Shown one piece after another: positions 8,831-42,924 of a DNA stretch of 44,362 nucleotides (the stretch's first letter is position 1; every line of letters starts with the position of its first letter). The notes under the pieces were generated by a model, which saw nothing but the letters and a program-made list of their open reading frames with translations, did no database searches and had not been told where the DNA came from. A program made the translations under genes and the position numbers. This stretch comes from an uncultured Candidatus Saccharibacteria bacterium (GTDB lineage: Bacteria; Patescibacteriota; UBA1384; DTJR01): positions 1 through 44,362 of the forward strand of contig CAZIOI010000002.1 in NCBI GenBank assembly GCA_964540855.1. The letters run 5' to 3'.

Positions 8831-8868
8831 CTGGTTAATGCAGAAATTAAGGTTTATTTGTGGGTAGT

Positions 8869-8985
8869 GTCGCTAAAGCGACATATTTCTAACTTGGTAT
8901 CTTTTGACTTACAATTTTTACTTAACAATTTTTAATTTTGCATTGTGATTATACGTTTTGCCTTTTTCGTTATACGTTTTGAATT
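8869..8985. repeat. Dispersed intergenic repeat copy (GTCGC-hairpin module, third copy of the 65-bp module, GTTATACG arms)
   Basis: gtcgctaaagcgac at 8869-8882. 8890-8954 is about 85% identical to 37485-37549. It is followed by gattatacgttttgcctttttcgttatacgtttt. Confidence 0.75.
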
Positions 8986-9010
8986 ATTTTGTTGTGGTAA
9001 AATTGTATTG

Positions 9011-11084: not shown

Positions 11085-11239
11085 AGATTGAATTTCTCTT
11101 ATAAATTTGTTATCATTTCCCAAGTGAATTTCGTGAATTTACAGCACTTTTATATCTAAATGTGTTTTGGCTGTGCAAAAAAATTATCGCACAGCGATAC
11201 CAAAGTTATACGTTTTTCGTTTTGCGTTATACGTTATTT

Positions 11240-14933: not shown

Positions 14934-15893
14934 TTATAAAACCGCATTAAACAAATAGCCAGTCAAAATTATCCCCGCTCCGACAATGCCTACGAACATA
15001 AAAATCAGCTTGGGTTTCATTATTCGCTTTAAAATCATAAATTCTGGTAATGATAATCCAGTCACCGCCATCATAAAGGCGAGAGTCGTGCCCATCGCCA
15101 CCCCTTTTTCACTAAGTACCGATATAAGAGGAACGATACCTGCAGCGTTTGAATACAAAGGGATTCCCAATACAGTCGCCAAAGGGACCGCGTACCATTT
15201 GTCCGCTCCGGCATAATTTGCCAAAAAGTCTGCCGGAACATAACCATGGATAAAAGCGCCGACCGCTATACCGGCTAAGACATATACCCAAATCTTTTTT
15301 AACGTACTTCGAGTGTAGCGACCGGCATAGTTGAATCTGTCCCGCCAAGATATTTCCGATTGTTTTTTTGTATTTTTATTTTGATAACCAATATCCTCTA
15401 TCAAGTTTTCAACTCCCAGTTTGCCGAGCACAATTCCGGAAACAACCGCGATCACAAGTCCAGAGCCTATATAAAGAAGAGCTATTTTCCACCCAAACAT
15501 CCCAAGTAGCATCACCAGAGCCACTTCGTTTATCATCGGCGAAGCAATCAAAAACGAGAATGTAACGCCGATTGGCACGCCGGATTCGACAAACCCCAAA
15601 AAAAGAGGAATTGCCGAACAAGTACAAAACGGAGTAATGATTCCCAGCAAAGCCGCCAATATATTGCCCACAAACGGGTATTTTCTCGACAAAATTACCC
15701 GAATCTTTTCTTTTGGCAAAAATGATCTAATAACCGAAACTACAAAAATAACCACTGAGATCAAAATCAGGATTTTAATTGTGTCAAAAATGAAAAAATT
15801 AATGGCTTTGGCCAAAAGTGTATTGTGGCCGATCGGTAACACACTATAGCTTATCCAGTCGGCCAATAATTTTACAGGGTAAAAAATATCCAT
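14934..15893 (-). CDS. Permease of the ArsP / predicted-permease (PF03773-like) family
   Basis: A 319-aa polytopic protein with the vicinal-cysteine motif TPFCTCSAIPLF. It overlaps the arsR stop by 1 nt. Confidence 0.75.
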   Translation of the reverse strand: MDIFYPVKLLADWISYSVLPIGHNTLLAKAINFFIFDTIKILILISVVIFVVSVIRSFLPKEKIRVILSRKYPFVGNILAALLGIITPFCTCSAIPLFLGFVESGVPIGVTFSFLIASPMINEVALVMLLGMFGWKIALLYIGSGLVIAVVSGIVLGKLGVENLIEDIGYQNKNTKKQSEISWRDRFNYAGRYTRSTLKKIWVYVLAGIAVGAFIHGYVPADFLANYAGADKWYAVPLATVLGIPLYSNAAGIVPLISVLSEKGVAMGTTLAFMMAVTGLSLPEFMILKRIMKPKLIFMFVGIVGAGIILTGYLFNAVL

Positions 15894-16147
15894 TATCCTC
15901 CAAGTTCGCTAATTTTTTTTGCCAAATCCACGAGAGTTTTTTTATTCAGGGAATAAAATTGATTTTTACCGCATCTGCAATTTGTAACAACCCCTGCTTC
16001 CTTTAGGGTTGATAAATGATGAGAAACCAAATTTTGAGGCAAGTTTAACAATTTTTCTATCTGGCAAACACAAAGCGGGCCTCTGCTGAGCGCCTCCACA
16101 ATTTTCAACCTATTACTATCTGCAATAGCTTTCAACATATCAATCAT
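15893..16147 (-). CDS. arsR: ArsR/SmtB family metalloregulator
   Basis: 84 aa with NRLKIVEAL, a winged HTH, the metal-site motif LCVCQI and LVSHHLSTLKEAGVV. Confidence 0.9.
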   Translation of the reverse strand: MIDMLKAIADSNRLKIVEALSRGPLCVCQIEKLLNLPQNLVSHHLSTLKEAGVVTNCRCGKNQFYSLNKKTLVDLAKKISELGG

Positions 16148-16171
16148 TATTGATATGATAGCAAACTCTGA

Positions 16172-16185
16172 CTATTGCGCAATAG
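16172..16185. promoter_or_regulatory. 14-bp perfect palindrome ctattgc|gcaatag upstream of arsR (candidate ArsR operator)
   Basis: Lies 25-38 nt upstream of the arsR start codon on the minus strand. Confidence 0.45.
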
Positions 16186-16244
16186 ACTTTGTTTGCAAAA
16201 AACCAATATCATCAATGCTGCTGACCTGAATACCAGCCTCAACC

Positions 16245-16283
16245 GGCCCCTGCGATTGCATCAAAGGGGCCATTTAATTTTTA
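16245..16283 (+). terminator. Orphan plus-strand terminator at the left edge of island 2
   Basis: ggcccct-N13-aggggcc followed by atttaattttta. No plus-strand gene lies upstream in this window. Confidence 0.55.
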
Positions 16284-16302
16284 TAAAAGCAACATACCTC
16301 CG

Positions 16303-16354
16303 TTGACTTATTGAAATATTCTTGTACTATGATCAGATTCGCAAAGTTGCGAAT
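16303..16354 (+). promoter_or_regulatory. Island 2 promoter (TTGACT-16-TACTAT) plus the 8-2-8 operator palindrome ATTCGCAA-AG-TTGCGAAT
   Basis: TTGACT at 16303-16308 and TACTAT at 16325-16330. The perfect palindrome at 16337-16354 lies just downstream of the -10. Confidence 0.5.
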
Positions 16355-16374
16355 ACAAAACAGGGGGGATCGCC

Positions 16375-16911
16375 TTGGCGCACGCCGAAAATGATACCAA
16401 GTTTGTCGTTCTGACAAAGAACGGCAGGCCAGCAGGGTGGGAACTACGCAAAGGCGATAGAGTCGCCGAAAGCGGGCGGCTATATCCAGTCAAGAGCGCA
16501 TGGGGTACACTTCTGCTCCACCTCCCCAGCATGAGACCCGGCTCATATAACAAGGATGAGCTGAGGACTGTGTTGGGCTGGGACGGCAACAGGCTAGAGG
16601 TTCTGACCAGAGCCGCCATCGAGCGGTTCGCAAGAGAGCACCCAGACGTAATGAAAATCCGTGGCAAAACCGTCGCGGTTCTCATCGAAATCGGCCTCGA
16701 AGAATTCGAGGCTGGCGAGCATATCTCGCCTTGTAAACAGACTCGGTGCACACCAGCGGCCCGAGCAAGCAAGACTCGAACTAGACAAGACCTCTCGGGG
16801 GTGTCGAACGAGAATTTGCTTGATCTTCTCGTAAGTTGCCTCCAGGATGCCGAGCAAGGCGGTTGCGCCGAAGCGGTTCGGCGCGAGATCCTCAGAAGAA
16901 TGCACCACTAA
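16375..16911 (+). CDS. GC-rich island 2, gene 1: 178-aa cytoplasmic protein, no recognised family
   Basis: A TTG start follows GGGGGGA by 5 nt. The residue composition is balanced with amphipathic segments (DELRTVLGWDGNRLEVLTRAAIERFAREHPDV). The overlapping antisense ORFs look like GC artefacts. Confidence 0.6.
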   Translation: MAHAENDTKFVVLTKNGRPAGWELRKGDRVAESGRLYPVKSAWGTLLLHLPSMRPGSYNKDELRTVLGWDGNRLEVLTRAAIERFAREHPDVMKIRGKTVAVLIEIGLEEFEAGEHISPCKQTRCTPAARASKTRTRQDLSGVSNENLLDLLVSCLQDAEQGGCAEAVRREILRRMHH

Positions 16912-16938
16912 CAGAAAGCAATCTGCACGAGAGGTAGA

Positions 16939-17127
16939 ATGATGGCCGAGAAAATGGCAAGGAGCGCTCTGCTGTGGTTAGTAGGAGGGTTCATAGCCCA
17001 TCTTGCCAATATTGCCCCCGAAGCAATCACGTGGTGGGTGATGGGCGCCAGCTTATTGGTTCTTGCCACAAGTGGCACCATCATGCTGTTGCGAGCCTTC
17101 CGTCTGGAAATTCGCAAGCATAAGTAA
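16939..17127 (+). CDS. GC-rich island 2, gene 2: 62-aa two-TM protein with a basic C-terminal tail (holin-like or small membrane effector)
   Basis: Two hydrophobic helices (ALLWLVGGFIAHLANI and WWVMGASLLVLATSGTIMLL) are followed by RAFRLEIRKHK. GAGAGG precedes the ATG. Confidence 0.55.
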   Translation: MMAEKMARSALLWLVGGFIAHLANIAPEAITWWVMGASLLVLATSGTIMLLRAFRLEIRKHK

Positions 17128-17130
17128 TCC

Positions 17131-17190
17131 GGCCCCGCGCCTTGGATCGCGACAGCGACACCAAGGCGCGGGGCCGCCCGTTCATCTTTT
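17131..17190 (+). terminator. Island 2 intrinsic terminator
   Basis: A 15-bp perfect stem (ggccccgcgccttgg / ccaaggcgcggggcc), then ...catctttt. Confidence 0.8.
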
Positions 17191-17248
17191 CAAACCAAGA
17201 AAAAACCTGTAAGATAAACTCGAGCTTTAAAAAACTAAGCAAAATTTT

Positions 17249-18682
17249 ATGAAAAGAACACAGATCGTCGATACATTGTCCGAAGTTTCTAAAACAGTTA
17301 AGGTCTCAGGCTGGGTCCATGCCCGCCGAGACCACGGCAAACTAATTTTTATTGACCTGAGAGACCGAACCGGACTTTTGCAGGTCGTTTTTTTGCCCAA
17401 TTCGCCCGCATACGACGAAGCAAAAAAACTCCGCAGTGAATGGGTAGTATCGATAACCGGCACAATCAACGAGCGACCTGAAAAAATGGTTAATTTAGAA
17501 ATATCAACCGGAAAAGTAGAGCTCGAAGCTCATGAGCTGGAGATACTCAACGAAGCCAAGACAACTCCTTTTGAAGTTGATAAAGATACGTCCAAAGTCG
17601 ATGAAGATCTTCGCCTGAAATACAGATACTTAGATTTGCGTACGGAGAGACTGAACAAAAATATTACCCTGCGCCACGAAGTTGTCAGGTTTTTCAGGGA
17701 ATATCTATGGGAAAAAGGTTTTCGAGAAATCGAGACGCCATACCTCACAAAATCTACACCCGAAGGCGCGCGCGAATTTATGGTTCCTTCGAGAATTTAT
17801 CCAGGAGAATTTTACGTTCTGCCGCAATCGCCACAGCAATTCAAACAACTACTCATGGTCGCCGGAATTGAAAGATATTTTCAGATCGCCCGATGCTTCC
17901 GCGATGAAGACCAGCGCGGCGACCGCCAGCCGGAATTCACCCAACTTGATATGGAGATGAGTTTTGTCGCACAAGAAGACGTCTGGGAACTAGTTGAAAA
18001 AATGATGATCGAAATGGTCAAAACCGTCTGTCCGGATAAAAAAATACAGCAAACCCCTTTTCCACGCATCACGTACAAAGAGGCAATGGAAAAATACAAA
18101 ACCGATAAACCGGACCTCAGAAAAAATAAATCCGATAAAAATGAACTTGCTTTTATGTGGCTGGTTGATGTTCCAATGTTCAAATATTCTCAAACCGAAA
18201 AAAAGCTTGTCTCCTCGCATCATCCCTTTACAATGCCAAACGCCGAGGACATTGATCAGCTGGATACAAACCCAGAGAAAGTTCGCTCGTACGGCTATGA
18301 CCTTGTCCTAAACGGGTTTGAGATTGCCGGCGGTTCGATCAGGATTCACAGTCGCGAAATTCAGAACAAAATATTCAATCTACTGGGTATATCAGAAGAA
18401 GAAAAGAAACGTCGCTTTGGCCACATGCTCGAGGCTTTCGAGTATGGCGCACCGCCGCATGGCGGTATTGCCCCGGGAATAGACAGGATTGTCGCCCTGT
18501 TAGCCGGCGAGGATGTAATCCGCGAGGTTATGGCATTTCCGAAAACAGGGGACGCCAAAGACCTAACGATGGGTTCGCCATCACCGGTGACCGAAAAACA
18601 ACTCAAAGACGTCCACATAGAGCTTGCCAAAGAGGCAAAAGGTAAAGAGCTCAAAGGCAAAGACACCGAAACAAACGATTAA
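17249..18682 (+). CDS. aspS: Aspartate--tRNA ligase, bacterial type, lacking the GAD insertion domain
   Basis: Contains QSPQQFKQLLM and FRDEDQRGDRQPEFTQLDMEMSF (motif 2), SDKPDLR-type and HHPFT motifs, and GGIAPGIDR (motif 3). It is 477 aa rather than about 590. Confidence 0.95.
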   Translation: MKRTQIVDTLSEVSKTVKVSGWVHARRDHGKLIFIDLRDRTGLLQVVFLPNSPAYDEAKKLRSEWVVSITGTINERPEKMVNLEISTGKVELEAHELEILNEAKTTPFEVDKDTSKVDEDLRLKYRYLDLRTERLNKNITLRHEVVRFFREYLWEKGFREIETPYLTKSTPEGAREFMVPSRIYPGEFYVLPQSPQQFKQLLMVAGIERYFQIARCFRDEDQRGDRQPEFTQLDMEMSFVAQEDVWELVEKMMIEMVKTVCPDKKIQQTPFPRITYKEAMEKYKTDKPDLRKNKSDKNELAFMWLVDVPMFKYSQTEKKLVSSHHPFTMPNAEDIDQLDTNPEKVRSYGYDLVLNGFEIAGGSIRIHSREIQNKIFNLLGISEEEKKRRFGHMLEAFEYGAPPHGGIAPGIDRIVALLAGEDVIREVMAFPKTGDAKDLTMGSPSPVTEKQLKDVHIELAKEAKGKELKGKDTETND

Positions 18683-18683
18683 A

Positions 18684-19601
18684 ATGGAAATTAAAGAGGG
18701 GAAAAGCAAATCACATGTATTAGCCAGTCTAATCAGCACTGTCGTAATTTTGGCACTCGGATATTTTGGGCTTTTATATTTTATGAGCCGGCCACTTTGT
18801 GATTTGCCGGTGTCTTACGAGATCGGTTCGCTCGATGAAAAGTTTAACATCAAGTCGGAAGATTTTGAGAAATCTATCAGCTCAGCTGCAAACATCTGGA
18901 ATAGCAAAACGGGTCGAAGTGTTTTTTCTCCTTCAGACACAGGTGTAAAAATAAGTTTGATTTACGACGAACGCCAAGAGAATATAGACAAGCTGAACAG
19001 CGAATCAAACACTATTCTAGAAGACGAGAGCAGTCTCGATTCAATGGGCGAGAAATTTGCCAGACTGTCTGAAAAATACAAACGAGAACTCACAGAGTTC
19101 AATAAACAGGTCGAATATTGGAACGGTCAAGGCGGAGCGCCGGAAGAAGAATACAACAAACTAAAGCAAACCGAATCTAAGCTCGCAGAGACCCGAGCTA
19201 CGCTCAATGAGATGTCAGCTGTTCTAAACGAAAAAGTCGAGGAACACAACGACCAAGTTGACGATTACAATCAGGAAGTAGAGGAGTCAAAAGGCAAAAT
19301 TATCACCCAAGGGGAATATGATCCGAATAACAATACTATCAACATTTATACATTTGGCGACATAGAAGAACTTACATTTGTTATCGCCCACGAGCTGGGT
19401 CACGCTACCAATCTCGATCACGTGGATAACCCCAAGTCACTAATGTATTATTTGGTTCAGGATCAGGATATCAAAAATCCCACGCTCACCGATGAAGACA
19501 AACAGCAATTTATTAAAACATGTAACTTGAATGCCAATTTTTTCAAGCCTAATTGGGCAAATTTGAAGTCTATGCTACCAAGAACCGCGATTTTAAAATA
19601 A
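18684..19601 (+). CDS. Membrane-anchored matrixin-like zinc metalloprotease
   Basis: HELGHATNLDH (HExxHxxxxxH) is followed by SLMYY (Met-turn). It has an N-terminal TM anchor and a central coiled coil. The ATG lies 1 nt after the aspS stop. Confidence 0.8.
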   Translation: MEIKEGKSKSHVLASLISTVVILALGYFGLLYFMSRPLCDLPVSYEIGSLDEKFNIKSEDFEKSISSAANIWNSKTGRSVFSPSDTGVKISLIYDERQENIDKLNSESNTILEDESSLDSMGEKFARLSEKYKRELTEFNKQVEYWNGQGGAPEEEYNKLKQTESKLAETRATLNEMSAVLNEKVEEHNDQVDDYNQEVEESKGKIITQGEYDPNNNTINIYTFGDIEELTFVIAHELGHATNLDHVDNPKSLMYYLVQDQDIKNPTLTDEDKQQFIKTCNLNANFFKPNWANLKSMLPRTAILK

Positions 19602-19603
19602 TT

Positions 19604-20470
19604 ATGGATCACAAAAAAATATTAGCGTTTGATGTAGGCGGCACGACGATCAAAAGCGCGATTATAGTCGGTAGGGAGGCGATAGGTTTTAGAGATACGC
19701 CGACTCCGACCAACCTCGGCGAATTTCTCGAACTTATAAAATTAACCATCGATCATTACCAAAAAAATAATCAATTTGATCGAATTGCAATGGGACTACC
19801 GGGATTAATAAACTACGCCGAGCAAATCGCCCTCGTCTGCCCCAACCTCCCCTACCTCAATAATTTTTCACCGAAGATTTTTAATTACGACATAAAGATT
19901 GCCAACGATGCCGATTTGGCGCTCGCGGGTGAGATGCATTTGAACAAAATTTCAACAGATTGCGCCCTTTTCACTCTGGGTACCGGTGTCGGAGGGTCAA
20001 TTTCGCTCGCCGGCGTAAAACCGTTTGAAATTGCCTACTCCGGTGAATTTGGCCATATCAAAATCGGTTTGAACGGCCCTGAGTGCGCCTGCGGGCAAAC
20101 AGGCTGTCTCGAATCATATATCGGCTCCAAAGCCCTTTTAGATGCGGCAAAAACAAAGATATCCCCCCAGATAGAAAACATCGAGGAGCTCTTCCGTCTT
20201 GCGAGGGATTCCAACCCAAAAGCCATAGAAATAGTTCAAACATTCTCTGATTATCTCGCTCTCGCGATCGCGAATATTATCAATATAACCGGCGTGCAAA
20301 CCATCATATTATCCGGTAAAATCTCAAAATCATCAGATATTTTTATGAATATGCTAAAGCCACGGCTGATTGAAAAAATTGCCTTTGCTCAGTATCGAAA
20401 TCTCGATGTACGTGTCGCGCTAGACAACGAAAAGAGCGCGCTGTTCGGCTCAACAGCTTTATTTGAATAA
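19604..20470 (+). CDS. ROK family sugar kinase (glucokinase-like)
   Basis: AFDVGGTTIK (ATP site), the ROK zinc motif CACGQTGCLESY, and GEFGH. Confidence 0.85.
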   Translation: MDHKKILAFDVGGTTIKSAIIVGREAIGFRDTPTPTNLGEFLELIKLTIDHYQKNNQFDRIAMGLPGLINYAEQIALVCPNLPYLNNFSPKIFNYDIKIANDADLALAGEMHLNKISTDCALFTLGTGVGGSISLAGVKPFEIAYSGEFGHIKIGLNGPECACGQTGCLESYIGSKALLDAAKTKISPQIENIEELFRLARDSNPKAIEIVQTFSDYLALAIANIINITGVQTIILSGKISKSSDIFMNMLKPRLIEKIAFAQYRNLDVRVALDNEKSALFGSTALFE

Positions 20471-20871
20471 TTCAAGCTTCACCTGAAATATGTCATTTCT
20501 GCCCCGACTCTCGACAGTCATTCTCGCCCCATCAATTCGCGGGGTAAACTACAGCGATTTATTCAGGCTTCGCCTGAAATGTGATTACGAGCTAAAGCTC
20601 GTAGATTTATGTTAAGGACAGGGGCTTCAAGTTGCCTGCCCGCTATCGCTAACGCTCAAGCGTTCGCAGGCGGGCGAAGCCCGCCCCCCTATCCTTAACA
20701 ATCCAACCCCGGCACGCTTCGTACCATGGTGTCGCTTTGCGACGATATTTGTCATTGCGAGCCCAAAGGGCGCGGCAATCTTACTAGCGTAAAACGTATA
20801 GCGTATAACTATGGTGTTGCTTTGCAACGATTATATGAAGTTTTGAATTATACACTGTGATTATACGTTAA
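20471..20871. repeat. 400-bp convergent intergenic region composed of stacked repeat modules
   Basis: Contains caagcttcacctgaaat / caggcttcgcctgaaat direct repeats and GC-rich hairpins. GTCGC hairpins lie at 20729-20741 and about 20805-20817. GTCATTGCGAG...GCGGCAATCT is at 20751-20781, and CGTATAAC arms end in tatacgttaatta at the eno stop. Confidence 0.7.
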
Positions 20872-22197
<1,326 letters not shown>

Positions 22198-22224
22198 TTA
22201 GGATAAAGACTAAATAATGCAAAA

Positions 22225-22318
22225 CTTATAACGAAAAACGTATAAACACAATGTAAAACTTAAAATAAAAAAACTATCGTCGCAAAGCGACACCATAGTT
22301 ATACGTTTTACGTTTTAC
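22225..22318. repeat. Dispersed palindromic repeat (CGTATAA arm, GTCGCAAAGCGAC hairpin, CACCATAGTTATACG arm)
   Basis: The same module order is seen at 26411-26517, 30470-30618, 33941-34032 and 37352-37471. Confidence 0.75.
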
Positions 22319-22381
22319 TTTAACTTATTTGCTTTTCAATCTAAACCGTAATACTATCAAACTAATAATTAAGGAGGGTCT

Positions 22382-26334: not shown

Positions 26335-26410
26335 TCACAACAATCGTCACTTACTCCAGATATGCTTAATATATGATTCCTGTATGTGCAAAAGGCATAG
26401 TAGCGCAAAA

Positions 26411-26517
26411 TGCAAAATGTAAAACGTATAAACACAGCGTAAAATTCAAAAATTAATACATAACCGTCGCGAAGCGACACCATAGTTATACATTTTTCGT
26501 TTTACATTATACGTTAA
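26411..26517. repeat. Dispersed palindromic repeat copy that abuts the lepA stop
   Basis: aaacgtataaacac...gtcgcgaagcgacaccatagttatac...tatacgttaatta. The final tta is the lepA stop codon on the minus strand. Confidence 0.75.
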
Positions 26518-28254
26518 TTAGTACTTCAACAATTTCACAAACACATCTGTCGGCAGGCTCACGCGGCCCAGCTTTGCCATTTTACGTTTACCCTTCTTTT
26601 GCTTTTCCAACAGTTTTCGCTTTCGGGTCACATCTCCGCCATACAATTTCTCTGTCACATCTTTTCTAAAAGCTTGTATCCTCTCTGAAGCGATAATCCT
26701 ACCGCCAATAGCCGCCTGAATCTTTACCTCAAAGTTTTGTCTCGGTATAAATTCTTTCATTTTCTCCACCATTTGCCGGCCAACCTTGTCGACAAACCCC
26801 TTAAAGACTGTTCTTGAGAATGCATCAATTTTTTCTTCGGATATGTAAAAGTCAATCTGGACCAGATCACCGGCTCTAAATCCAATAAAATCATAATTTA
26901 TCGACCCGTAGCCTTGCGTTGCACTTTTCAGCTGATCGTAAAAATCCACGATCACCTCGCCAAGCGGCATTTCGTAGTCTAAAATCACTTTCTCTTCGAG
27001 ATGGCGAATATCTTTTTGCTCGCCACGACGCGACTGCAGAAGTTCAATTACACGTCCCAAATATTGTTTTGGCGTGATCAATTCCGCCTTAACCCACGGC
27101 TCCAGCGTCTCTTGCCCCTCTCTCTTATATTCGACGGTTGGCGTGGTAACGACTAGGTCAAGGTCATACTCCCTCTCCAGCCTTTCCTTAACAATTTCAA
27201 GGTGGAGCATTCCCAAGAAACCGCACCTAAATCCAAAGCCAAAAGCGGTCGAATTAGCTGGCTCATAAATAATTGACGAGTCAGATAATTTGAGCTTTCC
27301 CAAACTCTCCCTCAATCTTCCGTAGTCCTCACCGCTTGTGCAATATATTTCAGCATACACCATCGGACGCGGCTCCTTGTAGCCGCTCAATGGTTCAACC
27401 GCCAAAGAATCTTGTTCGCTGGTAACCGTAATCGTATCGCCAACTCTCGCCTGCGAGACATCCTTAAACGTCGTGACAACAAAACCAATTTCGCCAGTTG
27501 AGATAGATTCTTGCGATCTCAACCCCAGCTGAATCGCCCCCACGTCGGAGGCGATCGTCTTCTGATCCTTAAAAACAAATTTTATTTGGTCTGATCTGGC
27601 AATTTGACCGTCAAAAACTCTAACATAAGCGACAACCCCCCTGTAATCATCAAAGTATGAATCAAAAACCAGTGCCCGCGCACAGTCAACCTGTGATTTT
27701 CTCGGCGCCGGAACAGTTAAAATGATTTTTTCGAGCAGTTCACGCACTCCCTTACCCGTCTTGGCCGAGATAAAGCTAACGTCGTCGGGGTCGCAATTTA
27801 TGATCTCCGCTATCTCAAAAGCCACCTCTTCGGGCCGTGATTCTGGCAAGTCGATTTTATTCACAGCCGGAATAATCACCAGTCCGGCTTTTTTGGCGAG
27901 CTCCAGATTTGCCAGTGTTTGCGCCTGAACACCTTGGGTGGCATCCACCAAAAGAATCGCTCCTTCAACCGCCTGCAAACTGCGCGACACCTCGTAGGAA
28001 AAATCAACATGCCCCGGAGTATCTATGAGATTTAGCTCATACGGCTTATTATCGATAATCCATTTCATTCTCACCGGCTGAAGCTTAATAGTGATGCCGC
28101 GTTCACGCTCAAGATCCATGGAGTCAAGCACCTGATCAAGCATTTTTCGCTTTTCTACTGTTTCGGTCAACTCCAAAAACCGGTCTGCCAACGTTGACTT
28201 ACCGTGATCTATGTGAGAAATAATACAAAAATTACGAATATTCTCTGTTTCCAA
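26518..28254 (-). CDS. lepA: Translation elongation factor 4 (LepA)
   Basis: IRNFCIISHIDHGKSTLADR, NLIDTPGHVDF and the LepA-specific C-terminal domain. Confidence 0.97.
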   Translation of the reverse strand: METENIRNFCIISHIDHGKSTLADRFLELTETVEKRKMLDQVLDSMDLERERGITIKLQPVRMKWIIDNKPYELNLIDTPGHVDFSYEVSRSLQAVEGAILLVDATQGVQAQTLANLELAKKAGLVIIPAVNKIDLPESRPEEVAFEIAEIINCDPDDVSFISAKTGKGVRELLEKIILTVPAPRKSQVDCARALVFDSYFDDYRGVVAYVRVFDGQIARSDQIKFVFKDQKTIASDVGAIQLGLRSQESISTGEIGFVVTTFKDVSQARVGDTITVTSEQDSLAVEPLSGYKEPRPMVYAEIYCTSGEDYGRLRESLGKLKLSDSSIIYEPANSTAFGFGFRCGFLGMLHLEIVKERLEREYDLDLVVTTPTVEYKREGQETLEPWVKAELITPKQYLGRVIELLQSRRGEQKDIRHLEEKVILDYEMPLGEVIVDFYDQLKSATQGYGSINYDFIGFRAGDLVQIDFYISEEKIDAFSRTVFKGFVDKVGRQMVEKMKEFIPRQNFEVKIQAAIGGRIIASERIQAFRKDVTEKLYGGDVTRKRKLLEKQKKGKRKMAKLGRVSLPTDVFVKLLKY

Positions 28255-30423: not shown

Positions 30424-30469
30424 AAACTGATCTTAGCATTTTGTACCCTTAAACGGAAGGGAGATGTCA

Positions 30470-30768
30470 GCGTATAACTAAAAACGAAGAACGTATAATC
30501 ACAATAGATTAACGTATAACGTAAAAGGCAAAACGTATAATCACAACGCATAATTCAAAACCTACAAACTATCGTTGCAAAGCAACGCAATAGTTATACG
30601 CTATACGTTTTACGTTATGAATCAATTTGTCATTGCGCGGTTTTGGGGCGATCCAAAACCTAAACCTCTGTTTAACATTTTAACCCGGAGGACGCGGCAA
30701 TCTAAAAACAATTGTCGCAAAGTGACACCATAGTTATACCTTTTGCATTTTACGTTATACGTTATTAT
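30470..30768. repeat. Cluster of dispersed repeats upstream of murJ
   Basis: Several CGTATAAC/CGTATAAT arms, the hairpins gttgcaaagcaac and gtcgcaaagtgac with CCATAGTTATAC, and GTCATTGCG...GCGGCAATCT at 30629-30703. Confidence 0.75.
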
Positions 30769-30793
30769 GCCTCGTCCATAGAGGCTCGGGGGC

Positions 30794-33857: not shown

Positions 33858-33940
33858 AAAAATCCTCAAAAACTTTGCATCTTTGACTTTATACTTAAAT
33901 TCAAAATTGCACAAAGGAACGAGATAGTCAAAGCCAAACC

Positions 33941-34032
33941 AACGTATAACGAAAAAGGTAAAACGTAAAACCACAATAAACTAATGTATAACGTAAAACG
34001 AAAAACGTATAACTATGGTGTCGCTTCGCGAC
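33941..34032. repeat. Dispersed palindromic repeat copy
   Basis: aacgtataacgaaaaagg...acgtataactatggtgtcgcttcgcgac. Confidence 0.75.
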
Positions 34033-34121
34033 GATATTTGTGATTTAGTGTTTAGAACTTATTTGCTCAAACGTCATTTGTAAAAATGCGATTCTATCAA
34101 GTTTCTGCTAATCTTTTATTA

Positions 34122-35327: not shown

Positions 35328-35692
35328 ATAGAAAAATAGTACAATTCACATTCGTTATAGCAGTGGCGGTTTTTGTTGGCTGTGGTCTATTGGGTTTTGG
35401 AATATATAAAAATCAGCCGACCGCCGACAGCTTTTCTTCGACCATCCCCGCCGGTCCGAGTTGGGCGGCAGACAATACTCCGGAAGTGCCTGACAAGCCC
35501 GCTATTGCCGGGGATGCAACCGACGACGGAATTACTAATTCGATGGATATAAACGCGCTCCTGTATCGCTGGGGTGAATCAGACGCCGATTATAAGACAG
35601 CCGCCGGCAAAACTACTGTTGGAAGCTATGATATTGTCGAAGTTGTCAATAACTGGCACTGCACCGAAGACCGGAACGGGTGCGGAAGTTAA
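35324..35692 (+). CDS. Small membrane-anchored protein with a dockerin/EF-hand-like Ca-binding repeat
   Basis: An N-terminal TM helix, then GDATDDGITNSMDINALLYRWG, which resembles a dockerin repeat. Confidence 0.5.
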   Translation: MNRKIVQFTFVIAVAVFVGCGLLGFGIYKNQPTADSFSSTIPAGPSWAADNTPEVPDKPAIAGDATDDGITNSMDINALLYRWGESDADYKTAAGKTTVGSYDIVEVVNNWHCTEDRNGCGS

Positions 35693-35714
35693 CGCAAAAT
35701 TAAAAACGAAAAAC

Positions 35715-35779
35715 GTATAACCACAATTCAAAATTATTAAGTACTAAGTAAGAATTGTAAGTCAAAAGACACTAAGTTT
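35715..35779. repeat. Left copy of the 65-bp inverted repeat that brackets the ncRNA island
   Basis: The reverse complement of 37485-37549 matches with 2 mismatches in 65 (hand alignment). Confidence 0.85.
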
Positions 35780-35780
35780 A

Positions 35781-35892
35781 GTCATTCCTGACTTGCTGTG
35801 CCCTGCGTAGCCCTGCCTACCGGCAGGCAGGCTTGGCGAAGTGGGGTCATTGCGAACCCGCGCAGCCACTGGCGAAGTGAGTGTGGCAATCT
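35781..35892. repeat. 66-nt GTCATTCCTGAC... module plus a GTCATTGCGA...GGCAATCT module
   Basis: 35781-35846 equals 41218-41283 with 2 mismatches in the same orientation. 35846-35892 belongs to the GTCATTGCGAG family. Confidence 0.85.
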
Positions 35893-36238: not shown

Positions 36239-37297
36239 TGGTTGGGTCCCGCTAGGCGGGACCCCGGAGTAATATGGGTGGATGAATGTCGGAGGTGGAC
36301 AAAGGCGCGAACCCTGTCCACCCCCTTGGGCCTGTGTGCCCAAAGATGATCGCGTCCCGCCCGAAGGTGACTCGGGCGGGGTTGATGAAAAACTGCCTTC
36401 CAGCGGCTACGGGGGCTTCCCGTCATCATCCCGCTGTCGGCAGGGTGCGCCCCCGACCCGTGGTCGGGGGTACTTCCCTTGGCTCCGGTTCGATTAGGCG
36501 ACCTGCAAGGTCGCCTCCCCGACGTCAGATTTCATTCGGTCGTCCTTCCGGCCCGCCTCCTGGCGGGCGCGAGGGGATCTGGTAACCCGTCTCGTCCGCG
36601 CTCCCCTCAGAGAACGGAGTCTCAGGCGGGATTCCGTCAGATGGGCGTTGGGCCGGTAGTGCGATGCAAAGTGCAATCCAGCCCTCATCATCGTCGCAGG
36701 TGGCCCAACGCCCGTCCGTACGACTCCACGACGACTGATCGAACGCCCGGCCGAAGCACGAGACTCCAGCAAGGTCGCCAGAGTGTAGCTACATGACCGA
36801 GCGTCGCCACTTGAACGCACTGTTTGCACTCCTGATCGCCCCTACAGGGCGATCGGCCACTAACGTCCCACGAGATCCGACTCCTTCTCTTACACATCTG
36901 GCTGGAGTCGGTCTCGAGAAAGATGATACGTCCCCCGTTCGGAGTCCCCACATACCGCAGACTAGTGAAGTCACACCGAATCTGCCTTGTGAAGCCCTTA
37001 CATCAAACAGCAGAAAACCTTGGCCGCCATCAATAGGCGGCAATTTGTCTCCGCAAAGCAACATCAGAACAGCCGGAACAGGCAAGACCCGAACTCGTCC
37101 TCCTTGGGAGAAGGAATACCGTTCGAGTAACCGCCGCCATCTCCTCGCGGAGACAGCCGTTTACCGGCCGGCCTAAGGCCGCCCGGGTCTGACGAGACGA
37201 CTAGATTGTCACATCTAGCACGGCGGTGTGTCTGCCAACATCAATCAACCCTCCTTTCCCAGATCATCCACCATTTCAAGGTTCGTACAAATACGAC
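36190..37297 (-). ncRNA. Candidate large (about 1.1 kb) GC-rich structured ncRNA, class unknown (island 4)
   Basis: No credible ORF exists in any frame, and many perfect 6-12-bp helices are present. Minus-strand promoter-like and terminator-like signals frame it. The strand and ends are inferred, not proven. Confidence 0.5.
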
Positions 37298-37351: not shown

Positions 37352-37471
37352 AATCGTTGTTAATGTATAACTAAAAACGTATAGCGTATAACTATGGTGT
37401 CGCTTCGCGACAATCGTTGTTAATGTATAACGTAAAACGTATAGCGTATAACTATGGTGTCGCTTCGCGAC
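37352..37471. repeat. Two tandem 60-bp copies of the dispersed repeat unit
   Basis: 37352-37411 and 37412-37471 are identical except for the dinucleotide ct versus cg/ta versus gt in ...gtataac(ta/gt)aaaacg... Confidence 0.9.
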
Positions 37472-37484
37472 AATATTTATTTTA

Positions 37485-37549
37485 AACTTAGTGTCTTTTG
37501 ACTTACAATTCTTACTTAGTAATTATTAATTTTGAATTGTGGTTATACA
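37485..37549. repeat. Right copy of the 65-bp inverted repeat, abutting the dnaE stop
   Basis: This is the inverted partner of 35715-35779. The dnaE stop codon begins at 37550, the next base after the repeat. Confidence 0.85.
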
Positions 37550-40500
37550 TTATTCGTTAGCGAAGGTTTTCTTCAGTTCCTGTTCGAACTCATCTGTCAA
37601 GTCCACTTTTGACCTCGTCTTGGCAAACTTGAAATCGCCATTTTGTTTATATGCGAGAACCAACAGACTTTCGCCCGAAAAGCGTTCAACAATTTCTTTT
37701 AATTTTAAAATTTTGTCCTTTTTAGTCGTTTTGGGCAAAATAACATAAACCGTCCCATCATCTTTGAGCGCAAACTGCCCTTTTTCAAAGGCATGTTTCA
37801 GTTTGTCGGTTATATTTTTTGTCTCCGATTCTTCGGTAAGGTCAATTTCAACAATTTTGTCTTCTACTGGGTCAACGGTTACAACGTGACTAGAGGCAAA
37901 TTTTGTATTGACAGAGGCAAATTCCGGCGCAGCAATTTTCGCCGGATCAAACTTTTCCGTTCGCTCGGCCAATACCTTGACCTCCCCGTCTTTTGTCGAA
38001 ATCTTGCCGGTGACAAGCACAATATTATCCGCCACCCAAAGGTCTGCTTCAGCCTCTAGGGTTTTCGGAAAAATAAGCACCTCCGATTTACCGGAGAGGT
38101 CTTCTATAGTCGCAAATGCCATGGCGGCGCCGGATTTTGTATTGATCTTTTTTATCGCCTGAATAATTCCACCGACTTTGACTTTTTTGCCGTCCATCGA
38201 CAAATTAAGGTCCGTCAGAGAATGGCTGACCGCCATCTTGAGTTTCGCGCCGTTTTCTTTGAGCGGATGCTCGCTGATATAAATTCCCAGTAGTTCCTTT
38301 TCCCAAACAAGTTTATCAGCCTGCTCGGCCGGTTTGACCTCTGGCAGATCGAGCTTGCCGATTTCGATATCGCCCGAGAGAACCTCACCGAACAATCCGA
38401 TTTGCGAGGATTTTATCTGCTTGGTCGTATCCTGAATCCTCTTGGTGATCGTTTCCATACCTTCTAATACTTGGTTTCGCTCAATCAGCGAATCCAGCGC
38501 GCCGGATTTTGCCAAGGCCTCCAAAATCTTTTTGTTTAACACCGATCGAGTGGTCTTGGCGGCATCAGCCTGATCTACCGTCTCTTCGACATCCGTTTTG
38601 CTAAGCCGGTCAATAAAATCTTCAAAACTCTTGTACGGACCGTTTTTTTTGCGCTCGCGAACAATCACTCGCGCCGGATTTGTGCCTATATTTTTGATCG
38701 CCGCAAGACCAAAGCGAATATCGCCCGTCTCCTTGACCACGCCAAAATCGACAAAGCTTTCGTTGACATCGGGCGGCAAAACATTGATACCCATCTTATT
38801 GCATTCGTCAATCTCGATCGAAATCCTATCAATATCGTCCAAATCGTTAGTCAAAAGCGCCGCCATAAAGCACTGCGGATGATTCGCCTTGAGATACGCC
38901 GTCTGGTAAGCGATCATGGCATAACAAACCGCGTGCGACTTGTTAAACCCATAGGCCGCAAAATCTTGAAGCATCGAGAAAACTTTTTTGCCGTCCGATT
39001 CGCTGACCCCGTTTTTTTGCGCGCCCTTGATAAATTTTTCTTTCATCTCGGCCATCAGCTCGGCAATTTTTTTACCCATCGCTTTTCTAAGCTTGTCAGC
39101 CTCGCCGCCGGTAAAACCGGCCATATCGCGGGAGATCTGCATAACTTGCTCCTGATAAACCGGAATACCGTAGGTAACTTCGAGAGCTTTTTTGGTCATT
39201 TCGTGCGGATATTCTATCGCCTCGCGACCGTTTTTACGAGCAATAAACGTGTCGATAAATTGCATCGGACCCGGCCTGTAAAGCGCCACCATGACAGCCA
39301 CATCATCGAGCGTGGTCGGCTTGAGCTCTTTGATATAGCGCTTCATACCGGCGGACTCCAGCTGAAACACTCCCGTTGTCCTTCCGTCGCCCAATAACTT
39401 GAATGTTTTTTGGTCGTCCAACGGAAGGTTGAAAATATCTATCTTTTTGCCGTCCACCGCCTCGATAATTTCCAGCGCGCGCTCAATGGTCGTAAGGTTT
39501 GCTAGCCCCAAGAAGTCCATCTTTAACAGTCCCAGCTCCGCCACCGGATACATCGAATACTGTGTCACCTGTTTGACACCCTCTTTTTGCGCCTGCTGCA
39601 GTGGCACATAACAGGTCAACTCGTCCTTGGTAATAACAAAAGCGCTAGCGTGCTGGGAGGCGTGGCGCACCGTCCCTTCGAGCTGTATCGCCATATCCAT
39701 TAGTCGCTTGGCACGAGGATCTTTTTGGTAAACTTCTTTGAGTTCAGCCGAGTCCTTGACCGATTTTTCCAGCGGAATGTGTTTGCCTTGCACCGGCGGC
39801 GGCACGATCTTGGAAATCGCGTCCACCTCGGCATAAGGATAACCGAGCACACGGCCGACATCGCGCACAGCAGCTCGCGCCGCCATTGTTCCAAAAGTAA
39901 TAATGCCGGCAACCCGTTGCTCGCCATATTTTTGCACAATATAATCCAAAACCTCGCTGCGGCGGTGATCGGCAAAATCAAGGTCGATATCAGGCATTTC
40001 ATGGCGATCGGGATTCAAAAATCTCTCAAAAAGCAGACTATACTTTAGAGGGTCGGCATCGGCGATATGCGTTAAATACGCCACCAACGATCCCGCCGCG
40101 CTACCGCGACCCGGACCGACCATGATCCCTTGCTGCTTCGCCCAACTGACATAGTCGGAGACAATCAGAAAATAACTCGAGAAACCCATACTGCAAATTA
40201 CCGACAATTCATATTCAAGACGTTCGTTTATTTTTTTGAGCTCTTCGGCAGACGCGTTCGGGTAACGATCTTTTATCCCGTTTCGGCACAAATCTTTGAG
40301 ATACTCGGCATCTGTTTTACCCTTGGGTAGTGGAAAAGTCGGCAGCAAGTTTGTTTCAAATGGTATTTCGAGGTCGCATTTATCGGCAATCTCTTTTGTG
40401 TTAGTCAGCGCCTCTGGCACTTCTTTAAACACCTTCGCCAAATCCTGCGGATCGCGCAATGAAAAATCGCCGTTGTAAGTCATTCTGTTTTTGTCTTCGA

Positions 40501-41197: not shown

Positions 41198-41217
41198 TTT
41201 TTTAAATTATTTTCTTT

Positions 41218-41478
41218 GTCATTCCTGACTTGCTGTGTCCCGCGTAGCCCTGCCTACCGGCAGGCAGGCTTGGCGAAGTGGGGTTCAGGAATCTTGGTAT
41301 TGTCATTGCGAGCGAGCGTAGCCCCGTGAAGCCTTAAGTGTAATGGGGCGAAGTGAGCGCGGCAATCTCTTCGCATCGTTCTTTTTACACTTTTCATTAA
41401 CATTTTGATTTTTAAGATTTAATTTTTAATTTTACGTTGTGGTTATACATTTTTCGTTTTACGTTATACGTTATTCAC
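41218..41478. repeat. Repeat cluster upstream of dnaE
   Basis: The 66-nt GTCATTCCTGAC... module is at 41218-41283 and is closed by gttcaggaat. GTCATTGCGAG...GGCAATCT is at 41302-41368. A partial 65-bp module and GTTATACG arms lie at about 41420-41478. Confidence 0.8.
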
Positions 41479-41507
41479 TACTTCCTCTTATTTAGAACAT
41501 AGCATTT

Positions 41508-41556
41508 GGGGACAAAAACGCAAAAGGCCCCGCCATACTCGTCGTATGGCGGGGCC
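41508..41556 (-). terminator. Island 5 intrinsic terminator
   Basis: On the minus strand a 13-bp perfect stem (ggccccgccatac / gtatggcggggcc) is followed by ttttgcgttttt. Confidence 0.75.
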
Positions 41557-41581
41557 TGATGGGCTGGACGGGAAAACAAAA

Positions 41582-42187
41582 CTACTCGAACATCCTCTTA
41601 GCGACCTTGTCGGCCGCCGATTCACTGCGTGGCTTGTCGAAGTGTTGGCGAACAGCATCAAACAAGCTGTTTGCCCAATTCTCCGCAGCCAGCCCCGCGG
41701 ACTTGGCCGCCCACAACAGCTCTGTGAACAACGAAAGAGCCCTCGCCATGTCGCTCTGCGTAATCTCGCAGGGCAACTTGACGAGCTCGCCCACGACAAC
41801 GAAGTCGCGTGTGAGCTCGCCCGAGATGTCGTCAGCCGTGCCGGAGGCGACCTTCAACATCTGCCGCCAGTCGCCATTCTTGAAACGGCTTGGCGACCCC
41901 ACCGGCAACGGAGTCCCGTCGCCAATCGTGACGCGTACGAAAACGAACCTGCCCCCTTCCTCATCTGCCCCGAGCACGAGGTCGAGGTTGAGGGCGGCCG
42001 CAACCCACTGCTCCAGCCAGCTGCCCTCGGCAGCTGCAACGTCACGCTCACCCTGCAGCCACCGGACAGCATCCATCACCGCGGCCTTGATCGTGGCGAT
42101 AACCCCAAACCGCCCCTCCTCCGCCATCTTCCGCAGACCGGCCGAAAACCTGATCTCCCTGTTCTCCACGTAACTGTCTCCCATCAT
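41582..42187 (-). CDS. GC-rich island 5, gene 2: 201-aa cytoplasmic protein, no recognised family
   Basis: The composition is balanced and the SD GGGGAG lies within the repeated leader. The plus-strand ORFs over the same DNA are Arg/Pro/Ser-rich artefacts. Confidence 0.6.
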   Translation of the reverse strand: MMGDSYVENREIRFSAGLRKMAEEGRFGVIATIKAAVMDAVRWLQGERDVAAAEGSWLEQWVAAALNLDLVLGADEEGGRFVFVRVTIGDGTPLPVGSPSRFKNGDWRQMLKVASGTADDISGELTRDFVVVGELVKLPCEITQSDMARALSLFTELLWAAKSAGLAAENWANSLFDAVRQHFDKPRSESAADKVAKRMFE

Positions 42188-42189
42188 CT

Positions 42190-42226
42190 GTCAAGATACT
42201 CCCCTTCGCGCGCTGGCTTGGGGGTT
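42190..42226 (-). promoter_or_regulatory. Repeated 5' leader element, copy A (upstream of the 201-aa gene)
   Basis: gtcaagatactccccttcgcgc at 42190-42211 is identical to 42831-42852. The adjacent ggct(t/c)gggggtt is also shared. The minus-strand sense is CCCCC...GCGCGAAGGGGAGTATCTTGAC. Confidence 0.6.
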
Positions 42227-42816
42227 TACTTGCGCAATTGCCCTCGACCACGACCAACCCTCTCAAACGTCTGGTCCACTCCGGCGCGCCCCTCAACGAT
42301 CCAACGGGGAGTCTCCTCACCGTCGCTAACACGCCCCTCCGCCATCTCCGCTGCCTCTCGAGCAAGCTTGAGGTAGTGCCTGAACACATCCTCAAGCTCC
42401 TCCCGAAGGTAAGCCACGCCATCGATGATCTCGCAGTCCTCAGCGAGAAAATGATAAAGCTCCCAGCTGGCCGCCTCTCGCAGAACATTAGATACTTCCT
42501 GGTAACTGCCGAGGGTATGCAGCTCAACGGGGATCTTGAGCCAACGCCGGCGATTGAACCGGACCTTGGCGGTAACATCATTCGCCCGGTCACCAACACA
42601 GCGCTGCCTCCGTCTGCTTGGACAGATGGCAAAGCAAACCTCAAAGTGTCTGCTAACAAACCTGTCCAACCAGCCGCCAACTGCAACAGCGGCAGCTAAC
42701 TGGTTTTCATCAAGGAGCCACTTCAACCGCTTAAGAATGGCCCCCTTGACTAAAGACATGGCCTCGGGCTTTTTGGCCTTCAGCTGCTGCATCAATCGCT
42801 CCGAGAGTCTCGTCAC
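42226..42816 (-). CDS. GC-rich island 5, gene 1: 196-aa cytoplasmic protein, no recognised family
   Basis: A GTG start lies 7 nt after AAGGGGG. The sequence has amphipathic helical segments (SWELYHFLAEDCEIIDGVAYLREELEDVFRHYLKLAREAAE). Confidence 0.6.
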   Translation of the reverse strand: MTRLSERLMQQLKAKKPEAMSLVKGAILKRLKWLLDENQLAAAVAVGGWLDRFVSRHFEVCFAICPSRRRQRCVGDRANDVTAKVRFNRRRWLKIPVELHTLGSYQEVSNVLREAASWELYHFLAEDCEIIDGVAYLREELEDVFRHYLKLAREAAEMAEGRVSDGEETPRWIVEGRAGVDQTFERVGRGRGQLRK

Positions 42817-42830
42817 GGCTACCCCCTTAC

Positions 42831-42867
42831 GTCAAGATACTCCCCTTCGCGCAAAGGCTCGGGGGTT
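42831..42867 (-). promoter_or_regulatory. Repeated 5' leader element, copy B (upstream of the 196-aa gene)
   Basis: Carries the same 22-nt core and the 12-nt flanking match as copy A. Confidence 0.6.
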
Positions 42868-42895
42868 GTTGATTCCCTGTTAAAGGCATCGAGAG

Positions 42896-42924
42896 ATGAT
42901 ACAACTTGCCCCCTTGAAAGTCAA
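42896..42924 (-). promoter_or_regulatory. Putative island 5 promoter (TTGACT-17-TATCAT), divergent from rpmA
   Basis: The reverse complement reads TTGACT (42919-42924), a 17-nt spacer, then TATCAT (42896-42901). Confidence 0.45.

Follow-up and report, generated by a model that had tools for sequence, protein, structure and literature searches.

A strain-variable two-gene cassette with a small two-helix protein in a hairpin-bordered slot beside aspS of a Patescibacteria chromosome

What does a GC-rich pair of genes without recognizable relatives do between an arsR-arsP module and the essential gene aspS of a patescibacterium, a member of the candidate phyla radiation (CPR)? The question is raised by contig CAZIOI010000002.1 of an uncultured Candidatus Saccharibacteria bacterium (assembly GCA_964540855.1), whose 44,362 nucleotides are the window analyzed here. 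An earlier note on this DNA had described a cassette at this spot, comprising the promoter TTGACT-16-TACTAT, a perfect palindrome, a TTG-started open reading frame (ORF) for a 178-amino-acid (aa) protein (gene 1), a 27-nt gap and an ORF for a 62-aa protein (gene 2), and had proposed that it might be a toxin–antitoxin pair, a defence module or a phage-lysis remnant. All of these parts are present where it placed them. The answer that we prefer, with moderate confidence, is that positions 16288–17127 constitute a horizontally acquired, self-contained accessory transcription unit, comparable to the morons of phages, which occupies a replaceable slot and would produce a repressor-gated small membrane protein.

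The clearest evidence comes from related strains. Contigs of other metagenomes in which arsR, arsP and aspS are 90–93% identical to those of the window carry unrelated DNA in place of the cassette (Table 1). All of these variants rejoin the window at 17128–17131, before the same hairpin, and at least three cargo types share this right junction within 3 nt. On the other side, a second hairpin is kept up to 16275 in X4 and X7 and up to 16287 in L199–L201, in each case with other cargo, and X6 holds a diverged copy of it; the right hairpin stands behind every cargo type, namely in X4, X7, X10, L161 and the second contig of X6. Because both hairpins are shared by strains with differing cargo, they belong to the conserved frame. 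The left one had been taken in the earlier note for the tail of a donor gene that was carried in with the cassette; since it is kept in X4, X7 and L199–L201 beside entirely different cargo, it is a part of the slot and not of the cassette. The locus is, in short, a hairpin-bordered hotspot of replaceable cargo, with the arsR-arsP module on one side and essential aspS on the other. The cargo of X4 and X7 is probably the same as the transposase cargo of L199–L201. Among 160 aspS loci from genomes and metagenomes, no homolog of the cassette and no arsR-aspS synteny was found, and the closest genome (L001) has a pheS-pheT-aspS arrangement instead.

The cassette itself is foreign in composition, with a GC content of 57%, the range over 16400–17200 being 54–57%, versus about 42% around it. 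The latter is also the value for the window, a piece of a CPR chromosome that is assigned to the Patescibacteria because of the relatives of AspS, the best match being a Patescibacteria metagenome-assembled genome (74%). Profile searches identify minus-strand genes for ArsR (HTH_5) and an ArsP permease to one side and plus-strand aspS to the other, with a DUF5320 protein, an M10 peptidase, a ROK protein and enolase as further neighbours, and these family matches confirm the location between the arsR region and aspS that had been claimed before. The cassette is also real: three public bioreactor metagenome runs (X1–X3) contain the same sequence, and because independent Logan contigs of X1 cross both junctions (15744–17004 and 16988–17316, with one mismatch each), an assembly chimera or artefact is ruled out. 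As a foreign, self-contained two-gene unit with promoter, palindrome, two genes and hairpin, it is nonetheless ordinary in kind, bringing new ORFan genes to the already known type of strain-variable accessory cassettes with a small membrane protein; what draws interest is the sharp definition of the slot, a layout that recurs without homology and an unusual RNA structure.

That recurrence is seen in strain L161, whose cargo includes a YARHG-domain protein, a 164-aa multi-transmembrane protein, a frameshifted small two-helix ORF, a 165-aa soluble ORF and, behind it, a 79-aa two-helix ORF that stops directly before the shared hairpin; this module has 53–62% GC. The layout of a soluble ORF followed by a small two-helix ORF is therefore present in both strains, without sequence similarity: comparing the 178-aa with the 165-aa protein and the 62-aa with the 79-aa protein gives values at the level of shuffled sequences (p=0.28 and 0.39). 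Upstream of the 165-aa ORF, at 4637–4854 of L161, overlapping frames of 30 and 66 aa resemble a frameshifted two-helix protein with a very basic tail, RRRARRKKFNTPKKRPKRGKK. The arsR-arsP block at 14938–16163 for its part behaves as a portable module, 89–93% identical in L161, L163 and L199, with a HAD hydrolase and BipA as its neighbours in L163 and a different left neighbour in L161.

Genomic islands have been reported in Patescibacteria (PMC12455944). The slot resembles a replacement flexible genomic islet in that 90–93% identical flanks enclose unrelated cargo, the content is ORFan, and other strains have an insertion sequence (IS) element at this site; it differs in that the cassette measures only 0.84 kb, the borders are two hairpins, the right junction is common to the several cargo types to within 3 nt and the cargo RNA is unusually structured. 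There is little here to suggest an integron, as none of the neighbours annotated over about 5 kb is an integrase and the cassette has a promoter of its own; the 3′ hairpin, considered without comparison with attC models, has a perfect 16-bp stem common to all cargo types. Likewise, a group II (class C) intron finds no counterpart, with no Rfam intron family at E values up to 1 and a cassette that starts with a promoter, not GUGYG. A bolder interpretation would be that the hairpins define a dedicated slot occupied by a new class of mobile cassettes of Patescibacteria, non-autonomous, delivered beside the hairpin by a recombinase acting in trans and using conserved RNA or single-stranded DNA structure in mobility or control. 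The features behind it (a size of about 0.85–1 kb, GC richness, a high density of hairpins, and a soluble ORF with a two-helix ORF) are common to the cassette of the window and the module of L161, but we consider this interpretation unlikely.

Neither protein of the cassette could be connected to any other. No match to either was found among about 15 billion proteins; in 5.8 billion protein clusters, searched by word index, the window's own sequences were the only matches, and an exhaustive phmmer search of 1.84 billion representatives returned only the queries themselves and one spurious hit, the TPR-repeat protein P0003 (E=7e-5), which was rejected as a relative because each of its many 'EHPDTL' repeats aligns with a single short stretch. 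Pfam, PHROGs, NCBIfam and the sequences of the PDB contain no match (no PHROG below E=0.05), PADLOC-DB 2.0 yields 0 families for both proteins at E values up to 1, tblastn against phage and plasmid collections and a scan of viral contigs leave them unmatched, and Rfam, searched at the gathering threshold and at E values up to 1, gives chance-level matches on the terminator hairpin only. These empty searches agree with the earlier description of gene 1 as encoding a soluble protein without known relatives; on the other hand, the suggestion of a defence module loses ground, as no known system was matched in PADLOC.

Because neither protein has a relative, the case that they are proteins at all is built on intrinsic signals and on evolution. 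The most informative comparison is with X6, a landfill metagenome that contains a copy of the cassette about 87% identical to that of the window. The 62-aa gene shows codon periodicity (chi-square 19.2, p=0.004) and is intact in X6, its ATG kept and without damage; the two copies differ by 13 synonymous changes and 12–13 mostly conservative replacements, and the ratio of nonsynonymous to synonymous substitution (dN/dS) is 0.21 in frame versus 0.47 and 1.03 in the shifted frames (permutation P=0.007), the baseline from core genes of the window and strain L161 being 0.03–0.12. This gene is protein-coding and is maintained by purifying selection, and it is the sole component of the cassette that looks maintained. 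The divergence of the cassette from X6, about 12%, is similar to the 10.6% of the arsR-arsP flank; it has therefore been inherited vertically for a long time and was not recently acquired.

The 178-aa ORF also is, or was, protein-coding. Its frame has GC fractions of 0.615/0.461/0.618 at the three codon positions, with 37% G and 11% T at first positions, and codon periodicity (chi-square 24.0, p=5e-4); the length of this longest ORF of the island exceeds that found in 98.5% of shuffles. With 19 synonymous and 28–30 replacement codon changes relative to X6, dN/dS is 0.40 in frame versus 0.79 and 1.24 in the shifted frames (permutation P=0.034 for the synonymous excess). By periodicity and dN/dS, both ORFs carry a coding signal relative to antisense ORFs, the lack of which the earlier note had named as a point against its reading. 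Gene 1 is only weakly constrained, however, and is a pseudogene in X6, where it has two in-frame TAG stops (E62* and S141*) and a Shine–Dalgarno (SD) sequence that reads GGTGTGA instead of GGGGGGA, its own stop codon having been lost through small indels at 16906–16919. In the freshwater sample X9, fragments of gene 1 at 94–99% identity end in ...MR*, and from 16904 on the sequence is a different one with a new ribosome-binding site, GAAGGAG; coverage there does not extend to the 62-aa region. Gene 1 is dispensable and can be lost or re-partnered. Given a dead gene 1 beside an intact gene 2 in X6, and the change of sequence after gene 1 in X9, the two genes are separable and recombine independently, which argues against the toxin–antitoxin pair that had been suggested. 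In such a pair, or in an abortive-infection version of it, the 62-aa protein would be a depolarizing toxin and the 178-aa protein both antitoxin and autorepressor on the palindrome. A two-gene operon with a palindrome at its promoter, a small protein of holin- or toxin-like topology, a strain-variable location like that of many defence genes and, by eye only, a helix-turn-helix-like stretch at residues 60–85 of the larger protein would all be in keeping with this. Yet the arrangement seen in X6, with the putative antitoxin a pseudogene and the putative toxin intact under purifying selection, would be fatal if the pair were a classical one, PADLOC, Pfam and NCBIfam contain no matching family, and 178 aa is long for an antitoxin; together with the altered sequence in X9, these points make the pair improbable.

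The shape of the 62-aa protein is more readily described than its function. It has hydrophobic stretches at about residues 9–24 and 32–51, with Kyte–Doolittle peaks of 1.76 and 1.86 over 17 residues, and AlphaFold models it with a mean confidence (pLDDT) of 91.3 as two helices, 2–25 and 27–61, with a hinge at Pro26 (the model of the 178-aa protein, made without an alignment, reaches a pLDDT of 37 and is unusable). K5 and R8 lie at the N-terminal end, one Glu lies in the loop, and the C-terminal tail RAFRLEIRKHK holds five K/R and one E in 11 residues, so that both ends are predicted by the positive-inside rule to face the cytoplasm. Hydropathy, model and charges bear out the two-helix protein with a basic tail described previously. 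This two-helix shape fits class II holins, small toxins, and exclusion and immunity proteins, and does not discriminate among them.

Class II holins and pinholins, for example S21 of phage 21, are the obvious reference for a two-helix protein of this size. The likeness includes a length of about 60–70 aa, two hydrophobic helices, a predicted N-in/C-in topology, a basic C-terminal tail and several early Met codons; the differences are that the 62-aa protein has no sequence relation to them, no endolysin or spanin partner and no phage context, and that the hydrophobicity of its helices is moderate (Kyte–Doolittle 1.8–1.9). These observations bear on the idea of a phage-lysis remnant, in which the 62-aa protein would be a class II holin left from a decayed prophage together with an unrecognized endolysin or other phage gene. 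The helices and the tail, Met1, Met2 and Met6 as possible alternative starts, the foreign GC content and the moron-like autonomy would suit it, but there is no phage gene within 10 kb, the neighbours (arsR-arsP, aspS, the M10 peptidase, the ROK protein and enolase) being of the housekeeping kind; gene 1 has no lysin domain; no PHROG below E=0.05 and no phage genome or viral contig is matched; and a small gene kept under purifying selection over about 12% divergence is unlike a remnant. Of the readings considered here we hold this one to be the least probable.

It is also worth considering that the pair may be a toxin–immunity module, with the 178-aa protein as an antibacterial effector and the 62-aa protein as its immunity factor, such that loss of the effector would leave an orphan immunity gene. 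A decayed effector beside a kept small membrane gene, as in X6, is the pattern of orphan immunity genes, the locus is strain-variable, and in L161 a soluble ORF is likewise paired with a small two-helix ORF. Set against this, no signal peptide, export partner or toxin domain was found for the 178-aa protein, which also lacks relatives, and it is not usual for immunity genes to share a repressible promoter with the toxin in such an order. We find a module of this type quite improbable.

How expression of the cassette might be controlled is suggested by its upstream region. The predicted sigma-70-like promoter is followed by the palindrome, whose position 7 nt after the −10 box presumably fits a repressor site. 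It is the sole exact copy within the window, a fact that proves nothing alone because 0.67 occurrences of such a pattern with up to three mismatches are expected by chance. In the copy of X6 no difference is listed over 16329–16364, the palindrome included, and positions 16365, 16367 and 16371 differ. The half-site TTCGCAA occurs also at 16627 and 17111; four of its nine copies in the window lie in the island, an enrichment that is weak after the palindrome itself is discounted. The single occurrence of the 18-mer in viral contigs lies inside a coding region and was taken as chance. Candidates for a protein that would bind the palindrome are the 178-aa protein, which could itself be the regulator of the cassette, the neighbouring ArsR, or an unlinked factor; the candidate operator of ArsR, between the arsR start at 16147 and the cassette, is a different palindrome, and it is within this element, at 16163, that homology with strains L161 and L163 stops.

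The right hairpin is presumed to be a terminator that insulates aspS. Its existence had been predicted correctly but with a stem of 15 bp, whereas the perfect arms are of 16 nt; the 32 matches of this 16-mer in GC-rich viral contigs are at about the level expected by chance. Near the left hairpin, a plus-strand promoter-like site (TAGACT-18-TATCAT, 16183–16212) lies about 35 nt upstream of the hairpin and its T-run. An RNA of about 65 nt could arise from 16183–16283, which would explain the seemingly orphan left terminator.

The structure of the transcript raises a further possibility. Predicted folding of the coding part is far stronger than that of host genes or GC-matched genes (Table 1). 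When the substitutions of X6 were mapped on the predicted fold of 16432–16859 of the window and compared with randomly re-placed substitutions, 16 of the touched pairs were kept (10.7 expected) and 17 broken (24.1 expected, P=0.0095), and four pairs were double-compensatory (0.95 expected, P=0.009). Two of the latter lie in the predicted long-range helix, where pair 16437–16729 changes from G-C to C-G and pair 16441–16725 from G-C to A-T. No signal of structure-preserving substitution was found in the 62-aa region. With two sequences compared, the result is suggestive of an unusually structured transcript with some compensatory changes, and translation of the small gene may consequently be gated at the RNA level.

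These data invite the alternative that the first 550 nt of the transcript are mainly a structured RNA, either a folded leader that gates the small ORF, as in the hok and tisB mRNAs, or an RNA with a function of its own, the long ORF being decaying or secondary. The type I toxin mRNAs of hok/sok and tisB/istR are the natural comparison, as they share with the cassette a small hydrophobic ORF at the 3′ side of a strongly folded transcript, long-range helices and, in the case of tisB, a promoter with a repressor site; tisB and dinQ, both under LexA control, also come to mind when a small hydrophobic ORF has a palindrome where its transcription starts. The candidate differs from these in having two helices and 62 aa, and in that its 'leader' is filled by an ORF of 178 codons whose coding signal is real. 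The alternative draws on the folding of the coding part (z=-6.0, host genes scoring about −1 and GC-matched genes +1 and −1.4), on the fewer broken pairs and the excess of compensatory ones, two of them in a single helix, and on the retention of the region in X6 despite two stops and a mutated SD sequence. However, the long ORF has a good SD sequence, a length reached in only 1.5% of shuffles, codon periodicity, G-rich and T-poor first positions and an in-frame excess of synonymous changes (omega 0.40 versus 0.8–1.2 in other frames). Furthermore, no Rfam family is matched, the comparison involves only two sequences, paired positions show no depletion of substitutions (39 of 54, where 65% of positions are paired) and the 62-aa region is without a structure signal. 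No antisense RNA gene was identified, although no test was aimed at one; a weak minus-strand promoter-like site was seen at 17271–17244. We regard a primarily structured RNA as doubtful, but as deserving to be kept in mind.

It is informative to return to the accessory transcription unit that we prefer in light of what is known of phage morons, which are said, after Hendrix and colleagues, to be autonomous extra transcription units in lambdoid prophages, and whose products are often small membrane proteins by which other phages are excluded. Like them, the cassette has a predicted promoter of its own, a predicted hairpin terminator downstream, a deviant composition and a presence/absence pattern between collinear genomes. 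It differs in lying between housekeeping genes of a CPR chromosome without a prophage, in that the flanking hairpins are part of the slot and not of the unit, and in having a palindrome at the start site. The foreign, autonomous two-gene unit, its hairpin-bordered hotspot, the separability of its genes and the purifying selection on the 62-aa protein are matters of observation; from these we infer that a repressor gates expression, that the product enters the membrane and that it has a role in conflict. In the mechanism we envisage, a candidate repressor would leave the palindrome, the small protein would then be made, and it would insert into the cytoplasmic membrane and act alone. Its most likely role would be in conflict, either by blocking the entry of phages or foreign DNA or by giving immunity to an agent that acts on the membrane; we regard a self-toxin dependent on gene 1, or a holin for lysis, as less likely than exclusion or immunity.

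We hesitate to press this reading too far, as several points weigh against it. The function is a guess from architecture in a protein without homologs; promoter and operator are consensus matches; the transmembrane topology comes from hydropathy and one AlphaFold model; and exclusion and immunity genes are usually constitutive, whereas the cassette looks repressible. The X6 sequence was rebuilt from difference lists, its contigs are 2–6x deep and about seven differences near contig ends are missing. In addition, the common right border could reflect selection for the region upstream of aspS and not a defined insertion site, and the excess of preserved pairs in gene 1 suggests that part of the constraint acts on the RNA and not on the protein. 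Even so, Patescibacteria have tiny genomes whose accessory genes are barely known, and this locus displays a cargo-swap hotspot at base resolution beside an essential gene, in strains that come from bioreactor, sludge, landfill and freshwater samples. Because selection keeps the 62-aa protein while its partner decays, it offers a concrete and cheap candidate for probing small membrane ORFans for phage exclusion, immunity or toxicity, and the unusual RNA structure of the contig's GC-rich islands may be a sign of control at the RNA level or of RNAs not yet known. Should none of this hold up, the locus would be one more ORFan islet.

Table 1. Coordinates of the cassette, its borders and related features in the window, with the strain comparisons and folding scores
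Feature	Position	Strand	Remarks
Cassette (strain-specific cargo)	16288–17127	+	Replaced by unrelated DNA in other strains; GC 54–57%; left limit versus X4 and X7 is 16276
Imperfect 18/18 palindrome GCAAACTCTGACTATTGC/GCAATAGACTTTGTTTGC	16161–16196		Between arsR start and cassette; candidate ArsR operator
Left hairpin (GGCCCCTGCGAT / ATCAAAGGGGCC) with T-rich tail	16245–16283	+	12-nt arms 16245–16256 and 16260–16271, 83% complementary; conserved left border of slot
Predicted sigma-70-like promoter TTGACT-16-TACTAT	16303–16330	+	Consensus match only, 9/12 positions
Perfect 8-2-8 palindrome ATTCGCAAAGTTGCGAAT (ATTCGCAA-AG-TTGCGAAT)	16337–16354		Begins 7 nt past −10 box; candidate operator
178-aa ORFan gene (gene 1)	16375–16911	+	TTG start; SD GGGGGGA 16363–16369, 5-nt spacing; soluble; no relatives
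Predicted long-range RNA helix	16432–16448 with 16716–16734	+	Encloses hairpin-rich domain inside 178-aa ORF
62-aa gene (gene 2)	16939–17127	+	SD GAGG 16931–16934, within the 27-nt gap after gene 1; predicted two-helix hairpin; C-terminal tail RAFRLEIRKHK
Right hairpin with distal T-run	17130–17190	+	Perfect 16-nt arms 17130–17145 / 17161–17176; 15-nt loop; T-run not abutting stem
X4 (activated sludge), 6.4-kb contig at 60x	15193–16275 and 17128–18500		About 93% identical; 1943 other letters versus the window's 852
X7			Same two borders as X4; contigs break at 16275 and 17128
L161 (Logan contig)	14938–16163 and 17128–20480		89–92% identical; 2745 nt with other genes between 16163 and 17128
L199, L200, L201 (JGI and ENA contigs)	To 16287		Match window through left hairpin, then HTH_28/HTH_32 + rve DDE transposase gene
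X6, second contig	From 17131		Sequence differs through 17130 and is identical thereafter
X10	From 17128		Joins window at 17128; 93 nt upstream of junction
Folding z, transcript	16337–17190		-6.4
Folding z, coding part	16375–17127		-6.0
Folding z, host genes			aspS -1.4; arsP -1.0
Folding z, Chloroflexi aspS segments of similar GC			L074 +0.96; L069 -1.37
Folding z, L161 GC-rich module			-3.2
Copies of the dispersed repeat family	8884–8992, 11171–11239, 20723–20870, 22205–22329, 26401–26519, 30468–30770, 33940–34045, 35690–35780, 37352–37558, 41378–41476

Elsewhere in the window there are three further GC-rich islands. That at 36280–37200 (GC 57–67%) contains no convincing ORF, lacks codon periodicity (p=0.2), is matched by neither Pfam nor Rfam, has a folding z of -5.8 and is bracketed by 76-nt inverted repeats (35705–35780 and 37483–37558, 95% complementary); it is a candidate for a large structured non-coding RNA or an element resembling a miniature inverted-repeat transposable element (MITE). 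The island at 1339–2054 (GC 63–70%), with ORFs that overlap in all frames without codon periodicity (p=0.14–0.2), a folding z of -12.8 and a perfect 16-bp hairpin at 1999–2036, is present in X4 at about 6% divergence and identical in X7, being conserved and not strain-variable, and may be a structured RNA and not a 134-aa ORF with a signal peptide. The island at 41500–42900 (GC 54–63%) has minus-strand ORFs of 196 and 201 aa with strong codon periodicity and no Pfam match, preceded by similar 37-nt leaders (42190–42226 and 42831–42867), as well as a perfect 14-bp hairpin downstream at 41525–41557 and a folding z of -4.6.

The window also contains dispersed intergenic repeats of 60–110 nt, in both orientations, with the core GTCGCGAAGCGAC-ACCATAGTTATACGTTTT(A/T)CGTTTTACGTTATACGTT, none of which is near the cassette; one copy (8832–8974) is swapped for 15 nt in X4 and X7. 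A GC-rich direct repeat of 70 nt (35778–35847 and 41215–41284, 96% identical) lies at the left edge of the third and fourth GC-rich islands. Another strain-variable spot is evident in L162, where a 3.9-kb insertion between enolase and the next gene (2580–6487 of L162, versus 22187–22325 of the window) carries a sortase, a 662-aa SBBP/Big_7 surface protein and an rve-family integrase.

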